DNA of 64,000 nt from an uncultured bacterium (GTDB lineage Bacteria; Krumholzibacteriota; Krumholzibacteriia; LZORAL124-64-63). The notes below the pieces were generated by a model. That model did no database searches. It was not told the DNA's origin and saw only the letters and a program-made list of their open reading frames with translations. Shown one piece after another: positions 4,762 to 39,786 of this stretch. Positions within the stretch are counted from its first letter, which is position 1; each line of letters begins with the position of its first letter. The stretch spans positions 832,001 to 896,000 of the forward strand of contig CAVSZB010000007.1 of NCBI GenBank assembly GCA_963732385.1, read 5' to 3'. The position numbers were made by a program, and so were the translations under genes.

Positions 4762-4859
4762 TGGCGGGAATGTGTGGGAATCGAACCCACCCCGGACACG
4801 AAACGTGCCCGACACAGGGATTTGAAGTCCCGGGAGCCCACCAGGACCCAGCCATTCCC
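4762..4859 (-). tRNA. selC: tRNA-Sec (anticodon UCA)
   Basis: 98 nt: GGGAATGG CT GGGTCC-TGGT-GGGCTC (6-bp D stem, 4-nt loop), anticodon loop CTTCAAA, long variable arm CGGGCACG-TTT-CGTGTCCG, GTGGG-TTCGATT-CCCAC, G73 and CCA. Confidence 0.95.
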
Positions 4860-29115: not shown

Positions 29116-30603
29116 TCAGGCCGGATCGCCGGTCAGGGCGTTCAGCAATTCTCCGTCCAGATCGGGAGCGAACGTCAGCCGCCACCCCTCGGGCAGCACC
29201 TCCCGCAGGTCGTCAGGCAGGGAGGGATGACCCAGGGCAAGACAGCCGCCCGACGGCCCGAGGAAATCGGCACGCCGCAGGCAGGCCAGGCGATCCGGAG
29301 CCAGAGGTCGATGTGAGGTGACCAGCAGCGCCTCCGAGGCCGCCGCGAGAGTGCCGTCGACGATCGCCTCAAGCGTGAAACGGCTCCGCAGACTCGCCAC
29401 GCAAGGCGCTGCCTCCCCCCAGCGATCACCCGCCGTGACGTCGAGCCAGAGTATTCTCCGTGCGCCGCCAGGGAACGGATTCCCGCCCACAGACGCCGCA
29501 ATTCTTTGCCAGACTTCACGGTAGATTGGCGAGCCAGGCAGGCGATCCGGTCCGGTCCCGGCCTTGTCCATTTCCGGCGCCGGTCCCTCGGACGGACCGT
29601 CGTCCGGAAAAGCCTCCCACGGGATGCCCCGGCAGAGCAGGCGGTCGCAGCCAGCCTGCGCGATGGCCGCCAGCCAGGCGCGGGACAGCGACGCCGGATC
29701 GAACATTCCGTGGACGTCGGACACGGGCGGAGCCACGCCGCGAGCCGCCAGCGCCGGTCCGAGCGCGGCCATGGTCACATCATCGGCGTAGAGGCGCAGG
29801 GCGCGGCCCGTGGCCAGAGCGCGCAGCCGCGCCAACGCGCCGGGATCGAGCGTGGCGGGAGGCCGCGAAGCAGCGTTCACCTCCGCCACGCCGGGCGCCC
29901 GGGGATCCGCCAGATGACCGACCATGACCGCGTCGGCCCCCACCGCGAACCCGGCCACGAAAGGCGCGTCGAGCGCGCCGGCGGCCGTATCAACGGCGGC
30001 GAGGTGGCTGTCGCCCGTGGTGCCCCCGTGTCCGGGCCAGTGTTTCAGGCAGACCTCCATTCCCCCCTCGCGCAGGCCGGTCACCGCGGCCGCCACCTGG
30101 GTCGCCACCAGGTCGCTTGCGGCCCCGAAGGCCCGCACGCCGATCACCGGATTGCGGCGCTCGACCAGCACGTCCGCGCAGGGAGCCAGCACGCGCGTGG
30201 CGCCGGCCGTCCGCAGACGAGCGGCGCTTTCGGCATGCACCCGGCGGGTCAGGTCGGCGTCGGCGAGCAATCCCAGTCCCCACGGCGCGGGCGGCCGACC
30301 CGCAGCAGCGGCCAGGACCGAAATCGGCCCCCCCTCGTGATCGACCGCGATCTCGGCGTGGCCGCCCAGGCAGGAGCGCACGGCGGCGCCCAGCGCCTGC
30401 ACCTGCGCCAGATTCAACACGTTGCGGGCGAACAGGATCACGCCGGCGGGGCGCCAGCGTTCCAGCCAGGCCGCTTCGCGAGCGCTCAAACCAGGCCCGG
30501 CCAGACCGACGACCAGACGTCCGGCCAGCGCCGCCGGAGCAACGGGAAATCGCGGCGGCCGCGGGGCCTCGCCGCCCCGGGCGGAATTCCCGGCCTCGCT
30601 CAC
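29116..30603 (-). CDS. Glycoside hydrolase family 3, NagZ-like beta-N-acetylglucosaminidase
   Basis: GVILFARN, VDHEGG, APCADV, KHWPGHG...DSH, VMVGH, ADDVTM; GTG overlaps the upstream stop. Confidence 0.85.
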   Translation of the reverse strand: MSEAGNSARGGEAPRPPRFPVAPAALAGRLVVGLAGPGLSAREAAWLERWRPAGVILFARNVLNLAQVQALGAAVRSCLGGHAEIAVDHEGGPISVLAAAAGRPPAPWGLGLLADADLTRRVHAESAARLRTAGATRVLAPCADVLVERRNPVIGVRAFGAASDLVATQVAAAVTGLREGGMEVCLKHWPGHGGTTGDSHLAAVDTAAGALDAPFVAGFAVGADAVMVGHLADPRAPGVAEVNAASRPPATLDPGALARLRALATGRALRLYADDVTMAALGPALAARGVAPPVSDVHGMFDPASLSRAWLAAIAQAGCDRLLCRGIPWEAFPDDGPSEGPAPEMDKAGTGPDRLPGSPIYREVWQRIAASVGGNPFPGGARRILWLDVTAGDRWGEAAPCVASLRSRFTLEAIVDGTLAAASEALLVTSHRPLAPDRLACLRRADFLGPSGGCLALGHPSLPDDLREVLPEGWRLTFAPDLDGELLNALTGDPA

Positions 30604-32126
30604 GGGTGCGCCGCTCCTGACGCCGGGTCGACCGCGATCGCCGGCAACGGGGCCAGCTCCGCACCCGGATAGTAGTGGGCCAGGATCTGGCCGGCCGTGA
30701 AACCGCGACGCGACATGCCGATCGCGCCGGTCTGACACATGCCGACCCCGTGACCGAAGCCGCGACCGTACGCTGCGATCCGCCGCGGGCGCCCATCACG
30801 ATCGGTTTCGACATGCAGACGGAAGAGGGCGCTCCAGAGCGAGCCGCGGTTTCCGGGCAGACGCAGCACGGAGCGCACCCGATCGCCCCGCACGTGGTAG
30901 ACGCCGGCGTCGGTGCTTACCTCGAGTTGCGCCACGCGACCGCAGGAGGTGCGCGCGCGCACGGCCAGCCCCAGCAACCGCCCCGGCCGGGACGGACCGG
31001 CACCGCCGGCGCGTGGCGTGAAGACGACGCCGGCCCAGGCGGCGCGGCGCGGATCGCCCATGTCTTTCACATATTCCGGGAGCGTGCGCTGCAGGATCTG
31101 CTCCAGGTCGCCGGCGCTCCACTGCTCCCGCCAGGCGAAGCGGGGCGCGGCGGCGCAGAAAGAGTTCGCGCCGTCGCGCGGCGCGTCCCGGAGGCCGCGC
31201 AGGTAGGGACGTGCATCGCGCGCCCACACCTCTTCGCAGGCGGCGGTGCGTCCGCCGCAGGTGGACGAATAATACGCCTCGATTTCCCGGCCACCGTACC
31301 GCAGCACCAGCCCGGCGGTGCGGGCGATGGCGGCGTCGCAGGTGGCGTCCTCGCCCGCCAGCCCTTCGTAGAGCTGATCGCGAATGTCCCCCCAGAGATC
31401 GAAACCGAGATCCGCGTGCTGCCCGCGGTGGAAAACCGTGTAGGTGCGCGCCGCAATCGCCTGCGCCTCGATCGCCGCCGCGGCCTGGGGGCCGAGCCGC
31501 CCGATTTCCCCCGGCACGACGCCCCGCAGGTACTCCTCCAGATCGATCGCGTTGATCATCAGCATCCCGCCCGGACGCCCGCGCACCACCAGAGCCCCGC
31601 GATAGCGCGCCTTGCCCCAGGCCACCACCTCCGCGGCGGCGTCCGCACGCAGCATCACCGCATCGGCATTGCCGACGGTCCCGCCGACCTGCCACCGCAC
31701 CCCGCGTCCGGCGGCGAACAGTTCTGCCCCCGCCCCTCCATCGAGCCGTGCCAGACGCGTGGTCCCGTCACCGTCCAGCAGCCAGGCACCGCCGCGGCAC
31801 GACAGCGTCGCGCGTGGCACCCCGTCGGCCAGACCGATCCGGACCAGCGGGGTCTCCTGCCGTGACGCCACGGGGCGAGGCGGCAGGGCCGCCTCGAGAT
31901 CGGGCCACTCCGGGCCGGGCGTATCGGGGTATTCCGGCTCGCCGGCCGGCGAGGTGATCGGCTCCAGGTCGGGCCAGGACGGTCCCGGCTCGGCGACCAC
32001 GGCGGGCGATTCCCCCGCCGGCCGCGGCCGCGGCCCCGGCGCGCAACCGCCGAGCGCAATCAGCAGCGCCAGCGCGGTCACGCCCGCGGCCCGCCACCCG
32101 CCAGACGCGCGCGCGGGCCCCTTCAC
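30600..32126 (-). CDS. SpoIID/LytB-domain lipoprotein (lytic transglycosylase-like)
   Basis: Lipobox LGGC; LEEYLRGVVPGE, AQAIAARTY, YSSTCGG, GFGHGVGMCQ, ILAHYYPG. Confidence 0.93.
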   Translation of the reverse strand: MKGPARASGGWRAAGVTALALLIALGGCAPGPRPRPAGESPAVVAEPGPSWPDLEPITSPAGEPEYPDTPGPEWPDLEAALPPRPVASRQETPLVRIGLADGVPRATLSCRGGAWLLDGDGTTRLARLDGGAGAELFAAGRGVRWQVGGTVGNADAVMLRADAAAEVVAWGKARYRGALVVRGRPGGMLMINAIDLEEYLRGVVPGEIGRLGPQAAAAIEAQAIAARTYTVFHRGQHADLGFDLWGDIRDQLYEGLAGEDATCDAAIARTAGLVLRYGGREIEAYYSSTCGGRTAACEEVWARDARPYLRGLRDAPRDGANSFCAAAPRFAWREQWSAGDLEQILQRTLPEYVKDMGDPRRAAWAGVVFTPRAGGAGPSRPGRLLGLAVRARTSCGRVAQLEVSTDAGVYHVRGDRVRSVLRLPGNRGSLWSALFRLHVETDRDGRPRRIAAYGRGFGHGVGMCQTGAIGMSRRGFTAGQILAHYYPGAELAPLPAIAVDPASGAAHP

Positions 32127-35100
32127 CGCATCACCACCAGCCTCTGCATGCCGCTGCGCAGACCGCCGCCCGGCGCCTCGAGTTCGACGCGGTACAGGTA
32201 GACACCGTTGGCCACCACGTCCCCCTCACCGTCGCGACCGTCCCAGGTCAGCAGCCCCTGGCCATCGTCCACCCGCTCGGCCCCGAACGGCACCACCGCC
32301 ACGCGCCGTCCGCCCACCGTGTAGATCACGATCCGCCCGGGCGACGCCGGAGCTGTCGTGCGGAACAGGATCCGCACCGGCCCTGACGCCGGATTCGGGA
32401 ACGCCAGCACATCGCTGACCGTGTACGCCGCGAGGGGCGCTTCGCCCTGCTGCAGCACGAAGGTCGTGGGATAGCCGGACACGGCGAGCGTGACCGCCCG
32501 TACGGTGGCGGCGGCGTCGGGTGCGGTGGCGGTGAAGGCGAGATCAAGCGTGCGGCCGTCACGCCGGGCGAGATGGATGTTGCTCAGCGTCAGCCCGTCG
32601 CCGGTCAGCAGCAGCGGCGTTTCGGCAGCCACGAAGGCAGGCATGGCGACCACCGCGGTGAAGTCGAGCGGCACCCCGGAGGCGAACCGCACGGCGCCTG
32701 ACTCGAGCGGCTCCGGAGAGCCGGCCAAAAACAGCGTGCCGGTCAGCGGCAGGCGCACGGTGAGCGTGGCGTGGTTGTCAGTCGGCAGGCGGTCCGCGGT
32801 GTCGTAGACATGCAGCGTGACGGCATGGTCGAACGGCCGCACCGGCAGCGCGATCTCGTACCCGGCGCGCTGGTTCGTGGCCGGGTCCGGCGGCGGCAGC
32901 TCGGTCACGGCGGCCGACAGGTCGTTTCCTGCCGAATCGAGCACCACCAGGCGATCGACCCCCGCCTCGTCCACGGCCGTCAGTCGGATACGCCGCACGT
33001 TGGTCGTATCGAGCGCCGCCATCTCCATCCCCTCGGTCAAGGGGGTGTCGCCAGCGTCCGTCAGGACGGCGACGATGGCCGGCGGGCCGCAGTCGAGCAC
33101 CAGCAGCGGATCGCCGAGCAGGCAGTACTGCGCCGCCAGCGCACGGTATTCGGAATCGTAGTAACCCGTGTAGTGCGCCAGCACCGCCGCCTCCCCCGCC
33201 AGCAGCAGGTCTCCGAGCCGCCACCCGGTGCGCGCGCCACCGAACAGCCGCGGCGGGGTGAACAGCCAGTTATCGAGCTGCAGCAGCGCGAAATCGGCGT
33301 TGGAGCCGAGGTACTCAAACCCACTGCTGGCGTAGGAGGCGCAGGCCCCGGAGGTGTGCGTGAGCAGTTTCTCCGCCAGCGACGAATGCTCCGGCCCGTT
33401 GCGGTCCGCCGTGTTCTGAGCCCACTCCGCGATGTGGCAGCCGAGCCCCACGAACACCCACGGCTTGCCGGCATTGGTCAGGCTGTTGACATCCTGGCGC
33501 AGATACGGCGAGGGGAAAGCCCGTTCGTCCTGGAACAGGATCTCATGGCACAGGAGCTTGGCGTTGGCGTGCCCCTGATAATGCACCAGGAGCGCGCCCT
33601 GCGACAGGGAGGGCAGCAGGGCCGGCACCGCCAGATTCGCCGTGTACTCCTTGACCAGGGCCAGGCTGCGGAACGTGTCTCCGGGCGGGAACTGCGGGTC
33701 GAGATAGGTCGACAGGAAGAACCGGTCCGCCGTCTGCTCCCCGCCCGCGAAGCGGTCCCAGCGGGCGGCGAGACTGTCCTGGCACACCCGGAAGCGCTGC
33801 TCATCCAAATTCCGCACCAGCGTGGACGAGGTCACATCGCCGTAGCCGTAGGAAAAATCATCGTCGGCGATGAAAAGCGCGCGGCGGCGCCAGGCCTGGC
33901 CGGCCTGGTCCGTCTCCACCTGCAGGGTCTTGGCGATCATGGTGGACAGTTCCGCCCCGTTGTTGCACGGGAAGCGCCCCACGACCATCTCCGCCGGCGT
34001 GCGGGTGCCGCTGGGATAGTTTAAGCCGGCTGCGGGAGTGGCGTACCATTTGTCGGCCGCCAGTGCTTCGGGCGGTTCCAGCACGTGCTGCGCGTGCAAA
34101 TGCGTCGGCACCCAATCATAGGTGCCGTCGACGACGTTCAGGGCGCGCGCGTTCTCGTTGGCGTCGCCCACGAGCAGCAGCCCCCAGCTACCCCAGCGGT
34201 CCATGGCGTACTCGCAGAAGCGCCGGATCGCCCAGGGGTCCTTCAGACCGCCGCTGAACCAGTCGTAGACATCCTGCACGTTGACCACCTGCAGGGCATG
34301 GCCGCCGCCGGCGGTGCTGCTGCGGTAGTCGATCCACGGCTGCAGGGCGGAGCGAAACGCGCCGTGCGTGATCACCAGCACTTTGGGCGAGCCGGTGGCC
34401 ACGGTCGGATCGACCGGATTGACGATCCGCCGCGAATTGAAGGTGGTGAACTCCGGCACGCCGCTGCCCGCCAGGTCCGCCAGCGCGGCGAACCGCCGGG
34501 GCGAACCGTCCGGCTGGATCGCCCGCAGCGAGAGCGTGTAGGAACCGCCGGCGTCGACGACGTTGCCGGCGCCAAGCGCGATCCAGGCCGGCCGGCGGGG
34601 ATCGGTGATGTCGATCACGCCGAGGTCGGCGCGGCTGAAACCGGTCACCTCGAAATCCCGGGCGCCGACGACCGCGTCGCCAGGGAAAACCAGCGCATCA
34701 TCGACGGCGCGGTAGAGCGCAGCGTAGGAAATCTCCGCCCAGTCCAGGTACGACATCAGGGCGGTGGGCGGATTGTTGAGCGAATCGATGCGCAGCGTGG
34801 CGGTCGGGTTGGCGAGCAGATTCCCACCGATCGGATCCGCGGAGAAAGCGAGGACCTCGGTCAGGGTGTTCAGATTGTGGGTGCCCAGATCCACGGTGTT
34901 AGCGCCGCAAACCAGCGAGGCCCGCACGAAGCGATCGAAGTTGCTGATACTCCAGCCCATCAGCCCGGCGCGCGCCTGCCCGTCAGTGCCGGCCGGATCG
35001 GGCGACCAGAGCGGAATCGACAACGTCGCCGCGGTATCGGTGTGGCGGTTGTAATGATTGCGATCACTGTCGGCGTTGAGCGTGAACTCCCGGTACGCGC

Positions 35101-36529
35101 TGTCCTCCTCGAGGTAATCGACACGCCGGTAACGCGGCAACGGCGCGCCGGCCGAAGGGGGCAGCGTCACCTCGGACATGCGCGCCCACGGCGCCCCCAC
35201 GACAGCGTCGGCGAAGGCGAGCCAGTAGACGTTGCCGGTGCGCAGTCCGGGATCGGCGGCGCCGCTGGGGCCGTTGTTCAGTTCGTAAGGATCGCCGCAG
35301 CCCGGCAGATCGACCGGCGAGTCGCCCGAGTCGTCGGTCCAGGCGTTGTCGTCGCGGGAACGCAGCGCGTAGAAAAGCAGCGCCTCGCCGTCGCTGAAGT
35401 CGCCACCGTCGCCGAGCAGCCGGATCGGCACTTCGCTGGTGAGATAATGCGCCGGGTCCGCCGCGTTGTAGCGGCGCTGGTAGAGACGGATCTGGTCCTC
35501 GCGCACGCCCCCCGCCGGCAGCCAGCCGAGCAGGCGCAGCTTGCTCGCGGTCAAACGGTAGAGCTGCGTTTTCGGCACGAGCAGTTGCACTTCCGGCGCC
35601 AGCGGCACGACCTCGCTCCGCGCGGCCGCGGCTCTGGCAGGCGCCGCGACGGCCGGCGCCGCAGCTTCGGCCGGCCAACGGCGCAACCCGTCCGGATTGA
35701 GAAACAGGAAGCCGAAGCGATCGTCACCGCGTCCACTGCGCGCCCCGGAAGTGCCGACACCGGCCCCCTTCGCCACCGGCACGAAGCGGATCTCCCAACG
35801 CCCTTCCCGCAACAGCCGGGAAGCGAGCCCGTCGGCATCCGCGGTCAACGGCGCCACGTTCACGCTGGCGATGCGGCGCCCCCGCCAGACGGTCGGCTCG
35901 CCGACGATCAGCGGCGCCTGCCCGGACGGCGCTTCGGCCGCCGTCCGCGCCGCCCACAGGGCCGGCTGCGAGCCTGCCGTAAGCGGCCGGCCGCGGCGCG
36001 GCGATTCGCCCGGCAGCAGCAGTTCCGCCCCCAGATCCTCCTCGCCGGTTTCGGGATCGCGCAGCGCCACCGGCGTGGACCCGACCAGCAGACGCCGCGG
36101 CGGGACCGCTTCCCAGCGCTCCGTCAACGGCGTCACCACGGGCCGCATCCCGGGCGGCACCACGATCCAGGCGCCCCACACCGGCAGCACCGGACGCGTC
36201 GGCGCGCCGCGGCCGCTGAAGCCGGGCAATTGCAGCTCCCACAACGGCGCGCCGCCATCGGGGCTCGCCGTCGCGCGCCACGCAGTATCGGCGGCGCTGA
36301 AAGCGAGCAACAAACCGGCATCGTCGCTGCGTTCCACCCGCACCGGGCGGTCACGACCACCATCCGGGATCGGCGTCGCCCCCCCTTCTGCCCGGGACTG
36401 GGCCGGCAGTCGCTCGACCGCGAACAGGCTCAGCAGCGCAACAACCGCCGGGATGGCGGAACCGGAGCGGCTCCACCGCGCCACGCGACGGCGCGCGCGT
36501 TCGTGAATCGGGACAGACGCGTGGATCAT
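32123..36529 (-). CDS. Large secreted C25 (gingipain/PorU-like) cysteine peptidase with C-terminal FlgD-Ig/CTD-like domain
   Basis: Signal peptide; propeptide-like region; VQDVYDWFSGG, LLLVGDA, VGRFP, HYQGHA (His), GCH (Cys), YCLLGDP; C-terminus FPNP...IYTVGGRRV...WDGRDGEG..VANGVYLYRV. Confidence 0.85.
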   Translation of the reverse strand: MIHASVPIHERARRRVARWSRSGSAIPAVVALLSLFAVERLPAQSRAEGGATPIPDGGRDRPVRVERSDDAGLLLAFSAADTAWRATASPDGGAPLWELQLPGFSGRGAPTRPVLPVWGAWIVVPPGMRPVVTPLTERWEAVPPRRLLVGSTPVALRDPETGEEDLGAELLLPGESPRRGRPLTAGSQPALWAARTAAEAPSGQAPLIVGEPTVWRGRRIASVNVAPLTADADGLASRLLREGRWEIRFVPVAKGAGVGTSGARSGRGDDRFGFLFLNPDGLRRWPAEAAAPAVAAPARAAAARSEVVPLAPEVQLLVPKTQLYRLTASKLRLLGWLPAGGVREDQIRLYQRRYNAADPAHYLTSEVPIRLLGDGGDFSDGEALLFYALRSRDDNAWTDDSGDSPVDLPGCGDPYELNNGPSGAADPGLRTGNVYWLAFADAVVGAPWARMSEVTLPPSAGAPLPRYRRVDYLEEDSAYREFTLNADSDRNHYNRHTDTAATLSIPLWSPDPAGTDGQARAGLMGWSISNFDRFVRASLVCGANTVDLGTHNLNTLTEVLAFSADPIGGNLLANPTATLRIDSLNNPPTALMSYLDWAEISYAALYRAVDDALVFPGDAVVGARDFEVTGFSRADLGVIDITDPRRPAWIALGAGNVVDAGGSYTLSLRAIQPDGSPRRFAALADLAGSGVPEFTTFNSRRIVNPVDPTVATGSPKVLVITHGAFRSALQPWIDYRSSTAGGGHALQVVNVQDVYDWFSGGLKDPWAIRRFCEYAMDRWGSWGLLLVGDANENARALNVVDGTYDWVPTHLHAQHVLEPPEALAADKWYATPAAGLNYPSGTRTPAEMVVGRFPCNNGAELSTMIAKTLQVETDQAGQAWRRRALFIADDDFSYGYGDVTSSTLVRNLDEQRFRVCQDSLAARWDRFAGGEQTADRFFLSTYLDPQFPPGDTFRSLALVKEYTANLAVPALLPSLSQGALLVHYQGHANAKLLCHEILFQDERAFPSPYLRQDVNSLTNAGKPWVFVGLGCHIAEWAQNTADRNGPEHSSLAEKLLTHTSGACASYASSGFEYLGSNADFALLQLDNWLFTPPRLFGGARTGWRLGDLLLAGEAAVLAHYTGYYDSEYRALAAQYCLLGDPLLVLDCGPPAIVAVLTDAGDTPLTEGMEMAALDTTNVRRIRLTAVDEAGVDRLVVLDSAGNDLSAAVTELPPPDPATNQRAGYEIALPVRPFDHAVTLHVYDTADRLPTDNHATLTVRLPLTGTLFLAGSPEPLESGAVRFASGVPLDFTAVVAMPAFVAAETPLLLTGDGLTLSNIHLARRDGRTLDLAFTATAPDAAATVRAVTLAVSGYPTTFVLQQGEAPLAAYTVSDVLAFPNPASGPVRILFRTTAPASPGRIVIYTVGGRRVAVVPFGAERVDDGQGLLTWDGRDGEGDVVANGVYLYRVELEAPGGGLRSGMQRLVVMR

Positions 36530-36591
36530 GGTGCAGACGCTCCTCGAAGCCGGGGCGTGGGGAGGGGCTCAGGGGGGCAACTCACCTGGTC

Positions 36592-36621
36592 AGTATAGGT
36601 TCGGTCGCCGGGAGGGGTCAA
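36592..36621 (-). promoter_or_regulatory. Sigma70-like promoter of the C25-SpoIID-NagZ operon
   Basis: TTGACC-18nt-TATACT. Confidence 0.6.
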
Positions 36622-36647
36622 CTGCCGGCGCCCAGACCGACGCACAC

Positions 36648-36679
36648 AAAAAAACCCGGGTGGCGAAGCCACCCGGGTT
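36648..36679 (-). terminator. Rho-independent terminator
   Basis: AACCCGGGTGGC-TTC-GCCACCCGGGTT running into a T-tract on the minus strand, just downstream of the 36702 stop. Confidence 0.9.
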
Positions 36680-36701
36680 GGAATCAGGCAGGCTGAAAAA
36701 A

Positions 36702-37328
36702 CTACTGGTACAGGCTCTTCACACTGCTCCAGCTGTTGTTCTCAGTGGGAACCACCGTGGGAATCTCCGGCGCCGGCAACGTCCAGAACCCAGCCATGAT
36801 GTAGAAGTAATCACGGCCCTCCAGCGGCATGCTGGTGGCCACCGGGAACAAGGGGAACTTCGCGTGGGATTGGCACCGTCGACATCGCCGGGGGTATGCA
36901 ACACGGGGAAGGACGTCGACGTGCAGGGACCAAGCCGAAACCTGCGCCGCCACGCCCATGCATAGAACCACTTCATGGTGAGCAGAAGCATCGCCGGCGT
37001 ACGGCATCGAAGGAGCAACGCCGACCTGGTAGTTCGGCGCGTCCAGAACAGTTGGTGCCGCCGCCAGCCATGGTATAGGTAACTCCGGCCACGGGGAACG
37101 CGATTGATCGCGACCTCAGCCTCCCAGGCGCGACAGGTGGCCGACTGGGTGATGTTCGTCGCCACCAGATAGGCGTAGACATCCACGTAGCATGGGAGCG
37201 GTGCGGCAGAGTAATTGTTGATGCCCATTCTGATCGAAGTAGACTCCGATGCCGTTGGGCATATTGCTCGTCTGCGCAAACGCGCTCGCAGACACCAGAA
37301 TCAGCGCCAAAACTAGCAACTTCTTCAT
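36702..37328 (-). pseudogene. Frameshifted gene A (~205 aa when repaired): secreted beta-rich protein with C-terminal VVPTENNSWSSVKSLYQ tail; true pseudogene or uncorrected read errors
   Basis: AAGGAG RBS, signal MKKLLVLALILVSASAFAQ; coding sense can be followed across at least 5 frame jumps (near 37226, 37102, 37050, 36994, 36862) to TAG 36702. Confidence 0.75.
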
Positions 37329-37365
37329 GATATTAACTCCTTAAAACCACGTTACGGACACCCTG

Positions 37366-38025
37366 TTACTGGCAACCCTGAAGAGCCGACTTCAGCGCCG
37401 TCACGTAGACCGACCGTGTCGGAAATGTTGATCACGCCGTCATAGACAAAATTCGGCATAGTAGTTGTCCGCCGCGAAACCCTTGAGGGCCGACACGTAC
37501 GACGCACCGTGTCCGAAACGTTGATTACGTTATCGCCAGTTGATGTCCGTGCTGTTGAACAGGATGTCGAGCTGGCTGCCGGACAGCGGCGTGCCGGCGA
37601 TCATGACCACGGTCTTCTCGCCACCGTTGCGGTTCGAGTGACCCTTCGCCAGATACCGCGTCGGTGAAGGTCGTGACACCGAGCGCATTGGTGTTGACGG
37701 CAGGAATGCTGGGCGTGCAGATGACCAAGCCACCCAGGCTGGTCGCGAGCCACAGATCCTCGCGGGGATACCCAAAGATCGGGTCTCCGTTGCCGTCTCT
37801 CAGGGTCAGGGTGATCGTCGCGTTGACCACAACGCCGCCGACCGTCTTCGCCTGGAGCAGGGTCTGCCCGGCTCCGGGGATCGGGGAGCAGTAAACCGAA
37901 ACCTGAGTCCCTGCAGCCGTCGTGGCCGTGGAAAGCGTATAATCCGGGATTCCTGCCACAGCCATGGAAACGGTTCCCATGACCAGACTGCATACGAACA
38001 GACTCACAAGTTTCCTTCTAACCAT
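37366..38025 (-). pseudogene. Frameshifted gene B (~215 aa when repaired): secreted protein with C-terminal dockerin-like duplicated Ca-binding motif; true pseudogene or uncorrected read errors
   Basis: AGGAGG RBS, signal peptide; repaired C-terminus DINGDNVINVSDTVxYVSALK...YADFVYDGVINISDTVVYVTALKSALQGCQ*; 5 frame jumps near 37650, 37538, 37503, 37452, 37411. Confidence 0.75.
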
Positions 38026-38145
38026 TAGGACACCTCCTAAAGGACATTCCCAAGCGAGGGTGTTTAACCCAGGCGACCACGTTTGGCAACCGCGCTAACC
38101 CCTCCTCTCCACTCCTCAGAGCGTTGTCCGACACTTGACTTGCAT

Positions 38146-38175
38146 AGAATACCACAAGCGCCTCCAGGGCCACAA
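38146..38175 (-). promoter_or_regulatory. Putative extended -10 promoter of genes B-A
   Basis: TTGTGG-18nt-TATTCT with TG at -15/-14; AT-rich upstream tract; GCTTGTGG direct repeat. Confidence 0.5.
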
Positions 38176-38287
38176 GCCCTATTTTTAGTTTTTCGGGGGA
38201 TTTGAAGGATCCTGATTAAGGACGATCAAATTCTGCCAGGGCGGTGCGAGATCGGGCTCCGCCACCGCGCCCCATCACCTAGAGGTT

Positions 38288-38364
38288 TGGTGGGCGAAAC
38301 AGGGCTCGAACCTGTGACCTCCTGCTTGTAAGGCAGGCGCTCTGACCAGCTGAGCTATTCGCCC
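38288..38364 (-). tRNA. tRNA-Val (UAC)
   Basis: GGGCGAATAGCTCAGCTGGTCAGAGCGCCTGC-CTTACAA-GCAGGAGGTCACAGGTTCGAGCCCTGTTTCGCCCACCA. Confidence 0.97.
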
Positions 38365-38643: not shown

Positions 38644-39786
38644 TCAGCGGGACGGCGCCACGCCCGCCGCTCGCTCCCGCTGCGCCCGCCAGGCGCGCAC
38701 GCCCCGCTCGTGCGCCTCGAGCGTGCGCGAGAAGACATGCCCCCCGTCGCCCCGCGCCACGAAAAAAAGCGCCTCGCACGCGGAGTCGGGGCTGACCGCG
38801 GCGCGCACCGCGGCGGCACCGGGGCTGCCGATCGGACCGGGAGGCAGTCCGGGGCACGTGTAGGTATTGAACGGCGAGTCGACCGTGAGATCGCGGGTGA
38901 ACAGCCGCTCGCCCCGCTTGCGCAGCGCGTAGGCGACCGTCGGATCCGCCTCCAGCCGCCAGCCCAGACGCAGGCGGTTCAGGTAGACCGCCGCAATCCG
39001 CGGACGGTCGTCCGGCAGGCGCGCCTCCGCCTCCACGAGCGAGGCGAGGGTGAGCAGGTCGTGCGGCGCCAGACCGGTCACGCGGGGCAGCGAATCGGCC
39101 CGCGCCACGCCTGCCGTCACGATCACCCTGGCCGCGGCGACCGCCGACAGGCCGGGCGGCAGGAAGTAGGTGTCGGGCGCGAGGTAACCCTCGCACCAGT
39201 GGAAGGGGCGCAACGTCGCGGCCGCGCCGGCCCGCGCCCCCGCGGCCGCGAGGGCGTCGAGCCGGGCCAGACGGGCGGCGTCACCGGCCAGTCCGCGGGC
39301 GACGATCCCGGCCCGCGCCAGCGAGTCGGCGGCCGCGAGGAAGCGCGCCGCATCGCCGCCGGTGGCATCGGCCACCCGGCGCGCCGCCTCCTCCGCCTCG
39401 ATTCCCTCAGGCAACAGCACCCGCGCCAGCACGACCCGCCCCGTGGCCAGCAGCGCGAGCAGGTCACGCGGCGCCAGGCCGCGCGGCAGGGTGTAGACAC
39501 CGGCCCTCAACTGTCGATCCCGGCCGGTGACCCGCGCCACCAGACGCAGCAGTCGGCGCTGGCGGACCAGGCCACGCCGGGCGAGGGTGTCGATGACCGC
39601 GCCATAGGGAGCACCGACCGGCACCCGCACCGTCTGGTACGGCGGCCCGGGCGGACGGCCGCCCGCGGGGCGGCTCCAGGCGCGCCAGCCAAGTCCCACA
39701 CCGCTCGCCAGCAACGCGGCCGCCAGGAGCAGCCGCGCGCTCACGCGCGCGAGCCGTACGCCGGGCCACGGTAACGCGCGCCTCAC
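38644..39786 (-). CDS. mltG: Endolytic transglycosylase MltG
   Basis: N-terminal TM; EGYLAPDTY, LASLVEAE, LEADPTV, SPFNTY, GLPPGPI. Confidence 0.93.
   Translation of the reverse strand: MRRALPWPGVRLARVSARLLLAAALLASGVGLGWRAWSRPAGGRPPGPPYQTVRVPVGAPYGAVIDTLARRGLVRQRRLLRLVARVTGRDRQLRAGVYTLPRGLAPRDLLALLATGRVVLARVLLPEGIEAEEAARRVADATGGDAARFLAAADSLARAGIVARGLAGDAARLARLDALAAAGARAGAAATLRPFHWCEGYLAPDTYFLPPGLSAVAAARVIVTAGVARADSLPRVTGLAPHDLLTLASLVEAEARLPDDRPRIAAVYLNRLRLGWRLEADPTVAYALRKRGERLFTRDLTVDSPFNTYTCPGLPPGPIGSPGAAAVRAAVSPDSACEALFFVARGDGGHVFSRTLEAHERGVRAWRAQRERAAGVAPSR

Follow-up and report, generated by a model that had tools for sequence, protein, structure and literature searches.

A predicted cohesin-dockerin gene pair with a 17-residue C-terminal tail and its PorU-like C25 neighbour in an uncultured diderm phylum

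Introduction

Can a secreted protein that carries no sorting signal of its own be placed at the bacterial envelope by a partner that does? This question is raised by two adjoining genes, here called B and A, and by the C25 peptidase gene that follows them on the minus strand of a 64,000-nucleotide stretch of DNA (the window; positions 832,001 to 896,000 of contig CAVSZB010000007.1, assembly GCA_963732385.1) from an uncultured bacterium of the Krumholzibacteriota, whose genome (the source genome) is 3.8 Mb in 9 contigs and 96% complete. Homologues with names and Atlas clusters likewise indicate Candidatus Krumholzibacteriota. A sequence-only reading of the window had proposed a surface-display system in which A is a cohesin-like scaffold, B a dockerin protein bound to it, and the C25 enzyme a PorU-like anchor acting on a short tail of A; all of these parts were found on that strand where they had been placed. 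Cohesin-dockerin pairs are known mainly from Gram-positive cellulosomes.

One observation is that a cohesin of the A family carries either the short tail or the C-terminal domain (CTD) of type IX secretion (T9SS), and the dockerin protein carries neither. In the reading proposed here, the X-dockerin protein B and the cohesin A bind each other, the tail of A is a second envelope-sorting signal cut and anchored by the PorU-like C25 enzyme, and the tag-less B rides along. Its core, a pair with a tag, is rather likely in our judgement; the full reading is tentative, with somewhat less than an even chance of being right. The counts across the phylum, the swap of tail and CTD, the fusions of both domains and the test of the transcription units are new in this analysis.

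X module and dockerin of the B protein

Gene B is made up of a signal peptide, an immunoglobulin (Ig)-like module and a dockerin, and resembles the type II X-dockerin dyads. Its intact orthologues are 198-226 residues long with a signal-peptide-like start, and the B model (predicted local distance difference test, pLDDT, 95; 137 sequences) contains an all-beta module followed by two helices at residues 170-181 and 198-207. The N-terminal module is Ig-like, with a middling best match (Z 6.9) among invasin/FdeC and filamin domains. For the C-terminal 57 residues, the best sequence match in the PDB is the type II dockerin 2y3n (E 9.5e-6), on whose structure the B dockerin superposes with a template-modelling (TM) score of 0.73 to the target and a root-mean-square deviation (rmsd) of 1.8. 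In addition, the phylum-wide B profile spans both modules of the X-dockerin dyads 4u3s, 2b59 and 4wi0 (E 5e-6 to 2e-5), calmodulin-like EF-hand proteins scoring alike with the same profile; the orientation of the X module relative to the dockerin differs from that in the solved dyads (rmsd 14-17 over both). Dockerin_1 (PF00404) matches 34 of the 137 B homologues at E<=0.01 (best 5.6e-7), although most members stay below the Pfam cut-off of 22.9 bits; one class-level orthologue passes at 24 bits, and the nearest intact orthologue gives no Dockerin_1 match.

The duplicated Ca-loop/helix that had been read at the end of a secreted B was recovered in full, with both repeats and the signal-peptide-like start in place, and its assignment as a dockerin is borne out by the 2y3n match, the Dockerin_1 matches and the dyad profile. 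Dockerins are defined by two repeats of ~22 residues, in each of which a Ca-binding loop of 12 residues (Asp/Asn at positions 1, 3, 5, 9 and 12) precedes a helix. Loop 1 of B reads D-x-[ND]-x-[DN]-x-x-x-[ND]-x-x-D, so that B follows the two-repeat dockerin pattern; in loop 2, positions 1, 5, 9 and 12 are kept and position 3 is variable. Position 12 is Asp in both repeats of all 137 homologues, and position 1 is Asp in 137 and 128 of them, respectively. A pair of Cys residues, the first within the Ig module and the second C-terminal, is present in 136/137 homologues, a pattern from which a disulfide clasp may be predicted.

Predicted cohesin fold of the A protein

A was modelled from its closest intact orthologue (L021) rather than from the broken source sequence, and the model is of high confidence (pLDDT 91, 73 sequences). 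Among the 50 structural matches listed, the top 19 are all cohesins (Z 10.9 to 7.6), and the first non-cohesin follows at 6.9. The best match (Z 10.9, rmsd 3.1 over 122 residues) agrees with the elongated jelly-roll beta-sandwich of nine strands that defines cohesins, and 2vo8 and 2xdh are the first and third matches. The top 10 Foldseek hits are likewise cohesins (probability 0.99-1.0, E 0.003-0.006, none reaching 0.001). The earlier proposal that A is a cohesin-like sandwich is therefore supported by the model in both searches. A is only about 10% identical to the solved cohesins, and with tied Z values types I, II and III are not separable. Searches of A against Pfam, NCBIfam and PDB sequences gave no match, so that its placement comes from the fold search only, and a search of the source genome with the Pfam cohesin model (PF00963) also gave none. 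One Atlas cluster, at 0.86, carries PF00963 on 16% of its members and is a lead only.

The source genome holds three single A-type cohesins and one X-dockerin protein without an enzyme domain. Apart from A, the two other members of its family in this genome (G000:C8:281713-282507, minus; G000:C1:43570-44313, plus) are tailed cohesins that stand alone, with no dockerin gene next to them. In L021:4276-5712 (+), two tandem A genes share identical last ~150 residues and differ in their N-termini, which suggests a recent duplication or gene conversion in a cohesin array.

Evidence on the proposed pairing of B and A

The predicted B-A complex scored 0.41, compared with 0.00 for the best of 3 controls, the runs agreeing in 98% of contacts and the partner pLDDT being 92. 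The mark for the complex score is reached by 116 of 157 solved pairs and by 2 of 215 mismatched pairs; among those over the mark, scores of 0.60 or less belong to 18 of the 157 solved pairs and to both mismatches, and hence the support is graded as weak. The score may also reflect solved look-alikes. Of the A-B interface that had been proposed, what stands is a score above controls, but at this weak grade.

The genomic support for pairing is better than the complex prediction. No terminator-like hairpin lies between B and the first A gene at 23 of 28 junctions. Among 22 loci examined for fusions, picked mostly for long reading frames, six join an X module, a dockerin, an A-type cohesin and a CTD in a single open reading frame (ORF), and in three a dockerin-ended gene without a CTD is directly followed by a cohesin-CTD gene. 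The latter three, each a signal-less dockerin gene with a cohesin-CTD gene, are L083:667-6002 (-), L097:1361-2937 (-) and L098:1481-3183 (-), and their dockerin proteins are candidates for hitch-hiking cargo; that of L083, with 1126 residues, has no Pfam match. The cargo domains of the long-frame loci include S8 and M43 peptidases.

It could be argued that A and B keep the shapes of cohesin and dockerin and are not partners, B binding multi-cohesin proteins or something else and A forming a variable, adhesin-like array. The weak complex support, the hypervariability of A with 1 to 7 copies behind one B, and the missing sequence-level cohesin match would all agree with this. It is nevertheless improbable, given the mostly unbroken B-A junctions, the fusions and split pairs of both domains, and the source genome itself, in which no multi-cohesin protein of the A family was found and B is kept nonetheless.

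The tail of A and its exchange with the CTD

A had been described as a secreted protein with a short C-terminal tail, and the tail, VVPTENNSWSSVKSLYQ, is indeed present at the end of the repaired A. It is, however, not special to A. In six frames of the source genome the strict tail motif occurs 20 times, 18 of these within 3 residues of a stop, and a looser pattern finds it at 21 ORF ends, mostly of small unrelated proteins with signal-peptide-like starts. The same genome encodes 46 CTD-like proteins, with zero overlap between the two sets. The tail lies outside the cohesin domain, and its last 7-9 residues are modelled as a helix at low confidence (pLDDT near 57). No match to it was found in the sequence libraries searched, and no paper on it was found.

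The two signals were then compared on one domain, in the best 150 of 3315 representatives of the A family, where the query profile contained the tail and favoured tailed short proteins. Of the short proteins, the pattern recognises the tail at the end of 89/92, and inspection by eye recognises it in the remaining 3, two of which were also flagged by the loose CTD pattern. Of the long proteins, 51/58 end in a CTD by pattern and 0/58 in the tail. On the dockerin side, none of 120 B homologues carries the tail at its C-terminus and 119 end in Cys within five residues; the loose CTD pattern flagged 3, each too short to hold a CTD. Of the two signals the cohesin bears one and the dockerin protein neither, and on this ground B is read as riding on A.

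The long proteins (P0161-P0305) have 550-2100 residues and mostly contain two to four cohesins, ASH/HYDIN-type Ig spacers and a type A CTD. These scaffoldin-like relatives are not recognised as cohesins by Pfam, and none was found in the source genome. Five CTD proteins of ~1050 residues in the source genome have near-identical C-terminal ends, three of them in tandem (G000:C3:187-200 kb, C4:87-90 kb, C7:172-176 kb).

The tail itself was considered as a type A CTD (TIGR04183 / PF18962) and rejected: where such a domain has 40-80 residues in beta-strands, with motifs B, D and E behind a cut site, the tail has 17 residues, is helical in the model, matches neither family model and is not preceded by an enriched cut motif. 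The shortest CTDs described in PMC11969387 have 40-55 residues and three strands. A V-x-x-E pattern, chosen after the tails had been seen, occurs in 8/21 tail linkers, 2/46 CTD linkers and 16/920 background sequences.

The C25 peptidase and type IX secretion

The 1468-residue C25 protein with an FlgD-Ig domain that had been reported downstream was recovered (Peptidase_C25, E 7e-56; FlgD_ig, E 3e-6). Its residues His987 and Cys1031 are present in 29/29 aligned orthologues, which have their own conserved residues after the Cys, and it ends in a PorU-like domain. The source genome contains three C25 genes. With the PorU model (NF033707, cut-off 420 bits), the C25 protein encoded next to porV scores 416, that of the window 137 and the third 84. 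The description as PorU-like consequently holds for the His/Cys dyad and the C-terminal domain, but the enzyme is not the PorU orthologue and is not encoded beside porV. The third C25 gene (G000:C7:586-591 kb) encodes FG-GAP repeats and a CTD, and its His region does not align with the dyad of the others.

The expectation of a diderm with T9SS genes was confirmed by LpxC and by matches over the cut-off for SprA and for the PorV/PorQ family, with six PorV-like matches in the source genome and PorU near its cut-off (416 of 420). Judged by its gene content, the source organism is a diderm and has type IX secretion, at least in its outer-membrane part. The GldM and GldN models gave no match in the source genome, but gave none in control genomes either; GldK and GldL were not searched.

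Distribution and gene order in the phylum

In 155 genomes of the phylum, each at least 85% complete, B was matched in 152, with 1 to 7 A genes behind it, and the window-type C25 in 153, weak C25 matches possibly being paralogues. Gene order was counted in the 108 genomes present in both the B and the C25 listings: B lies upstream of C25 within 12 kb in 78, far apart on one contig in 1, and on different contigs in 29, mostly in fragmented assemblies. The B-A-C25 order, whose conservation had been named as a check, is accordingly widely kept. Related loci begin with mltG and tRNA-Val, followed by B, between one and seven A genes and C25; behind C25 there is often a SIS-domain (murQ-like) gene, then spoIID and a NagZ-like gene. 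Because the whole block is an old synteny, adjacency alone says little. A scan for the system outside the phylum found only genomes within the family.

Some loci depart from the simple order. In genome G153, a B paralogue (L126:5934-6608, -) lies directly downstream of C25, though the tRNA-Val-B-A unit is 2.4 Mb away. In L078:2924-7441 (+), the B-A-A unit is tandemly duplicated with two identical B proteins. In other families the SIS-domain (murQ-like) gene comes after C25, and C25 heads a cell-wall turnover operon phylum-wide.

Putative transcription signals of the pair

B and A had been described as a two-gene unit with strong ribosome-binding sites (RBSs), its own promoter and a terminator. 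The RBS before B and the hairpin after A were both located (Table 1). A consensus promoter scan listed no promoter for B; nevertheless, an extended -10 element (TGnTAnnnT, 38154-38146), together with a -35-like box and an A-rich tract, is found 121-136 bases before the B start in 20/23 loci, and this constant distance makes a promoter of its own probable. The B leader is conserved (mean column identity 76% over 16 genomes of the family, with invariant blocks); it shows no covariation (0/11 pairs), has fold z-scores of -0.04 to -1.41 and belongs to no Rfam family, and its role may be to bind a protein or to stabilise an mRNA that is abundant. Two contigs from RNA libraries, 1402 and 1299 nucleotides long, span B and A of relatives, and prove neither a single transcript nor its level. 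As far as they can be read from sequence, the expression signals fit an abundant structural pair, without measuring it.

Proposed mechanism and its weighing

From these results, the following course of events may be proposed. B and A would be made from one strongly promoted transcript, separate from that of C25, which the conserved signals make quite probable. Both proteins would then be exported by Sec, and the Ca-loaded dockerin of B would dock on the cohesin of A; with high-confidence folds and a weakly predicted binding, this step is also considered highly plausible. The tail would probably do on A what the type A CTD does on its longer relatives, the cohesin giving the address for both chains. 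Finally, the window C25 may be the reader of the tail, in which case the cell would have two PorU-like enzymes for two C-terminal signals; this last step is the doubtful one. The C25 enzyme is favoured as the cutter and anchor of the tail because the PorU-like enzymes number two, as do the C-terminal signals, which exclude each other, and because the signal whose place the tail takes is known to be cut. The source genome would in this way make a coat or spacer without enzymatic activity, and in relatives the same cohesin sockets could also hold larger proteins tagged with an X-dockerin.

Several findings weigh against this proposal. At the level of the pair, the Pfam cohesin model PF00963 matches 0/73 members of the A family at E<=1, and A is more variable than B (mean column identity 30% vs 52%), which is odd for a fixed partner. 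At the level of the gene block, the A-C25 junction is the weakest: C25 lies apart from tRNA-Val-B-A in family f2 and in genomes G153 and G056, and where the two are separated, both the tRNA-Val-B-A unit and the C25 gene with its SIS-domain (murQ-like) gene persist (in G056 only the B-A side was seen). Among 26 A-C25 junctions, a terminator-like hairpin is found in 20 and a promoter-like site in 18, counts that have no shuffle control; an operon shared by the last cohesin gene and C25 was rejected on these signals. At the level of the enzyme, the likely PorU orthologue is encoded at G000:C7:221-227 kb with a porV-family gene directly behind it, and the window C25 gene lies elsewhere. PorU has a conserved Arg ~32 residues after the catalytic Cys according to PMC4560394; this Arg is absent from the window C25, which has Ser-Gly-Phe/Tyr-Glu instead, and the porV-linked paralogue is also without it, so that the residue does not distinguish these two enzymes. 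At the level of the tail, the cut site of PorU given in the same paper, X/(GSA)(VLI), occurs in 2/21 tail linkers, 15/46 CTD linkers and 170/920 background sequences, so that the tail linker is unsupported as a PorU-type cut site. A and B are predicted to reach the envelope; that either of them crosses the outer membrane would be a further assumption. The link between tail and C25 is weaker than the sequence-only reading had proposed.

The same findings lend themselves to a different account, in which B docks on A and the tail serves for docking without being cut: as an amphipathic helix with a cap, it would be bound by a receptor, for instance a lipoprotein, perhaps in the periplasm. C25 would then belong to the downstream cell-wall turnover genes and play no part in handling the tail. 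The helix modelled after a loose linker, with its S/T-W-G capping pattern, and the want of a PorU-type cut motif before the tail are in keeping with this, as is the behaviour of C25, which has its own promoter, overlaps spoIID and stays with the murQ-like and spoIID genes after leaving B-A. On the same cohesin domain, however, the tail stands where relatives have a signal that a C25 sortase is known to cut, and a second intact PorU-like enzyme is present in 153/155 genomes, mostly adjoining tailed cohesins. Moreover, a receptor and a cutter are compatible, since PorV and PorU both act on the CTD (PMC11969387). We regard the docking account as a serious possibility of about one in three.

Taken to its full extent, the proposal that the tail is a sorting signal read by C25 would mean that in an entire diderm phylum a cohesin-dockerin pair makes up a major layer of the envelope by way of a second route of protein sorting. 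A PorU paralogue dedicated to the task would read and cut a 17-residue tag, and dockerin proteins without a tag would ride piggy-back on tagged cohesins across or onto the outer membrane. This sweeping form is unlikely. If true, no shorter signal would be tied to type IX secretion, and its cargo would include hitch-hikers for the first time.

Integrity of B and A in the assembly

About ten frameshifts had been said to hide both genes, a count that is fair or slightly low, as at least 11 were found (5 in B and at least 6 in A), mostly surplus single bases. A frameshift-aware alignment of B to its nearest database homologue gave 177/217 identities (82%) with 5 breaks and no stop; four breaks are of +1 base and one of +2, near 37650, 37537, 37503, 37453 and 37410. 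For A, the number of breaks varied with the penalty chosen (6, 7 or 14); the alignment met no stop and gave 113-116/206 identities to the nearest homologue. Since there are no stops, the read-through identity of B is 82% and the relatives are intact, the breaks are most likely assembly errors, and we are confident that B and A are intact in nature. They probably stem from a patch where a long-read assembly was left unpolished, though the local density is much above the genome average.

That density, at least 11 breaks in 1.3 kb against 18 frame changes in the 58,508 aligned residues of a control of 138 genes (a same-genus genome against the source assembly), is what a real, decaying B-A pseudogene in the source genome would explain. 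No sequencing run with the exact strain was found, the best containing 0.14 of the words, which leaves this explanation some room. It is very improbable all the same. No stop codon is present, and start, stop, promoter, RBS and tail are all right; the breaks are mostly single surplus bases, and contigs of relatives are without those at 37413, 37456 and 37653. Ordinary genes of the same assembly are broken in patches too (12/138, three of them adjacent in one stretch), a second assembly of the genus is likewise broken in both B and C25, and B is near-universal across the phylum. Frameshifted long-read assemblies can conceal genes such as B and A.

Features of the locus

On the minus strand the order in the window is tRNA-Val, B, A, terminator-like hairpin, promoter-like site and C25 (Table 1). 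The G+C content of B and A is 60%, compared with 70-77% in the neighbouring genes. The gene that follows SpoIID/LytB (both within window 29116-32126, -) is one that we take to be NagZ-like from a sequence motif. Elsewhere in the window, a tRNA-SeC gene at 4762-4859 (-) indicates that the organism probably synthesizes selenoproteins.

Table 1. Features of the B-A-C25 locus, in window coordinates
Feature	Position	Strand	Basis or content
mltG, flank upstream of the conserved block	38644..39786	-	library match and related loci
tRNA-Val(TAC), most constant neighbour of B	38288..38364	-	tRNA search and related loci
Promoter-like site of B-A	38146..38193	-	A-rich upstream tract, -35-like TTGTGG (38175-38170), extended -10 TGGTATTCT (38154-38146); putative function
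Leader of gene B, ~115 nt	38026..38140	-	column identity in relatives; RBS AGGAGG (38038-38033) at its end
Gene B, ~217 residues read through	ATG 38025 to TAA 37366	-	signal peptide, Ig-like X module, two-repeat dockerin, invariant Cys pair; 5 frame breaks
Dockerin part of gene B	37370..37545	-	two 12-residue Ca-loop/helix repeats and terminal Cys
Gene A, ~206 residues read through	ATG 37328 to TAG 36702	-	signal peptide, cohesin-fold domain, linker, tail; at least 6 frame breaks
17-residue C-terminal tail of A, VVPTENNSWSSVKSLYQ	36705..36755	-	family form V-[AP]-[TNV]-E-x-x-[ST]-W-G-x-V-K-x-L-[YF]-R
Intrinsic terminator-like hairpin 3' of A	36644..36679 (12-pair stem 36679-36653)	-	stem and T run
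Promoter-like site of C25 gene	36592..36621	-	TTGACC-18-TATACT
C25 peptidase gene, 1468 residues, PorU paralogue	32123..36529	-	His987 (33569-33571) and Cys1031 (33437-33439) intact; PorU-like FlgD-Ig C-terminal domain
SpoIID/LytB gene, downstream flank, overlaps C25 stop	30600..32126	-	ORF list and library match

Comparison with known systems

No literature on the B-A locus or its tail was found, including searches on the phylum with type IX secretion, dockerin and C-terminal motifs, in a search that left subscription journals mostly uncovered. The locus can be compared with described systems of three kinds. The first is the T9SS type A CTD with PorU, PorV and SprA (NF033707, NF033710, TIGR04189; 6za2; PMC4560394 and PMC11969387). 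Alike are the C25 His/Cys dyad with a PorU-like C-terminal domain, the loose linker that leads to a C-terminal signal in exported proteins unrelated to each other, and the presence of SprA and PorV-family genes. In contrast, the window C25 reaches 137 of the 420 bits required and has no porV next to it, the tail has 17 residues and is helical in the model rather than having at least 40-55 residues with three strands, and the tail linker shows no enrichment of X/(GSA)(VLI). Should the tail be read by the second PorU-like enzyme, the two would form a new sortase-signal pair. The alternation of tail and CTD on one cohesin domain gives a direct handle on the role of the tail and on the partner-mediated export or retention of signal-less dockerin proteins.

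The second includes the complex of Ca. Stygibacter (Cloacimonadota), a genome-based proposal of a CTD-bearing multi-cohesin scaffold with dockerin enzymes, including a C25 (PMC8542988). B-A differs in being a core locus throughout its phylum, in encoding small proteins without enzyme domains and in a tail that has not been described, and multi-cohesin CTD proteins appear only as longer relatives of A. To the same kind belong the non-cellulosomal cohesins of Archaeoglobus fulgidus (2xdh) and Clostridium perfringens (2vo8/2w1n), which share the use of cohesin and dockerin outside cellulose degradation. A cellulosome was rejected for the source genome, which lacks a multi-cohesin scaffoldin with dockerin-bearing plant-wall enzymes; besides the B family, it has two weak, unrelated Dockerin_1 matches. 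With one enzyme-less dockerin protein of the B family and three single cohesins, the label of a display system is generous for this genome.

The third kind is the cell-anchoring type II cohesin/X-dockerin pairs of Clostridium thermocellum and Acetivibrio cellulolyticus (2b59, 5k39, 4u3s; PMC5141474), which B-A would resemble in its way of working. In both, an Ig-like X module directly precedes a two-repeat dockerin, and a single cohesin with a C-terminal anchor gives its partner attachment to the cell. B-A differs in its diderm host, in that B is an X-dockerin only, with neither scaffoldin nor enzyme, and in having the Cys pair (136/137) and a 17-residue tail as the putative anchor. If the proposed reading is true, the sortase-signal pair and an orthogonal, disulfide-containing cohesin-dockerin pair would be useful as protein-assembly tools. 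In this comparison, the predicted cohesin-dockerin pair emerges as a near-universal core locus of an uncultured diderm phylum, one that the Pfam cohesin model had missed.

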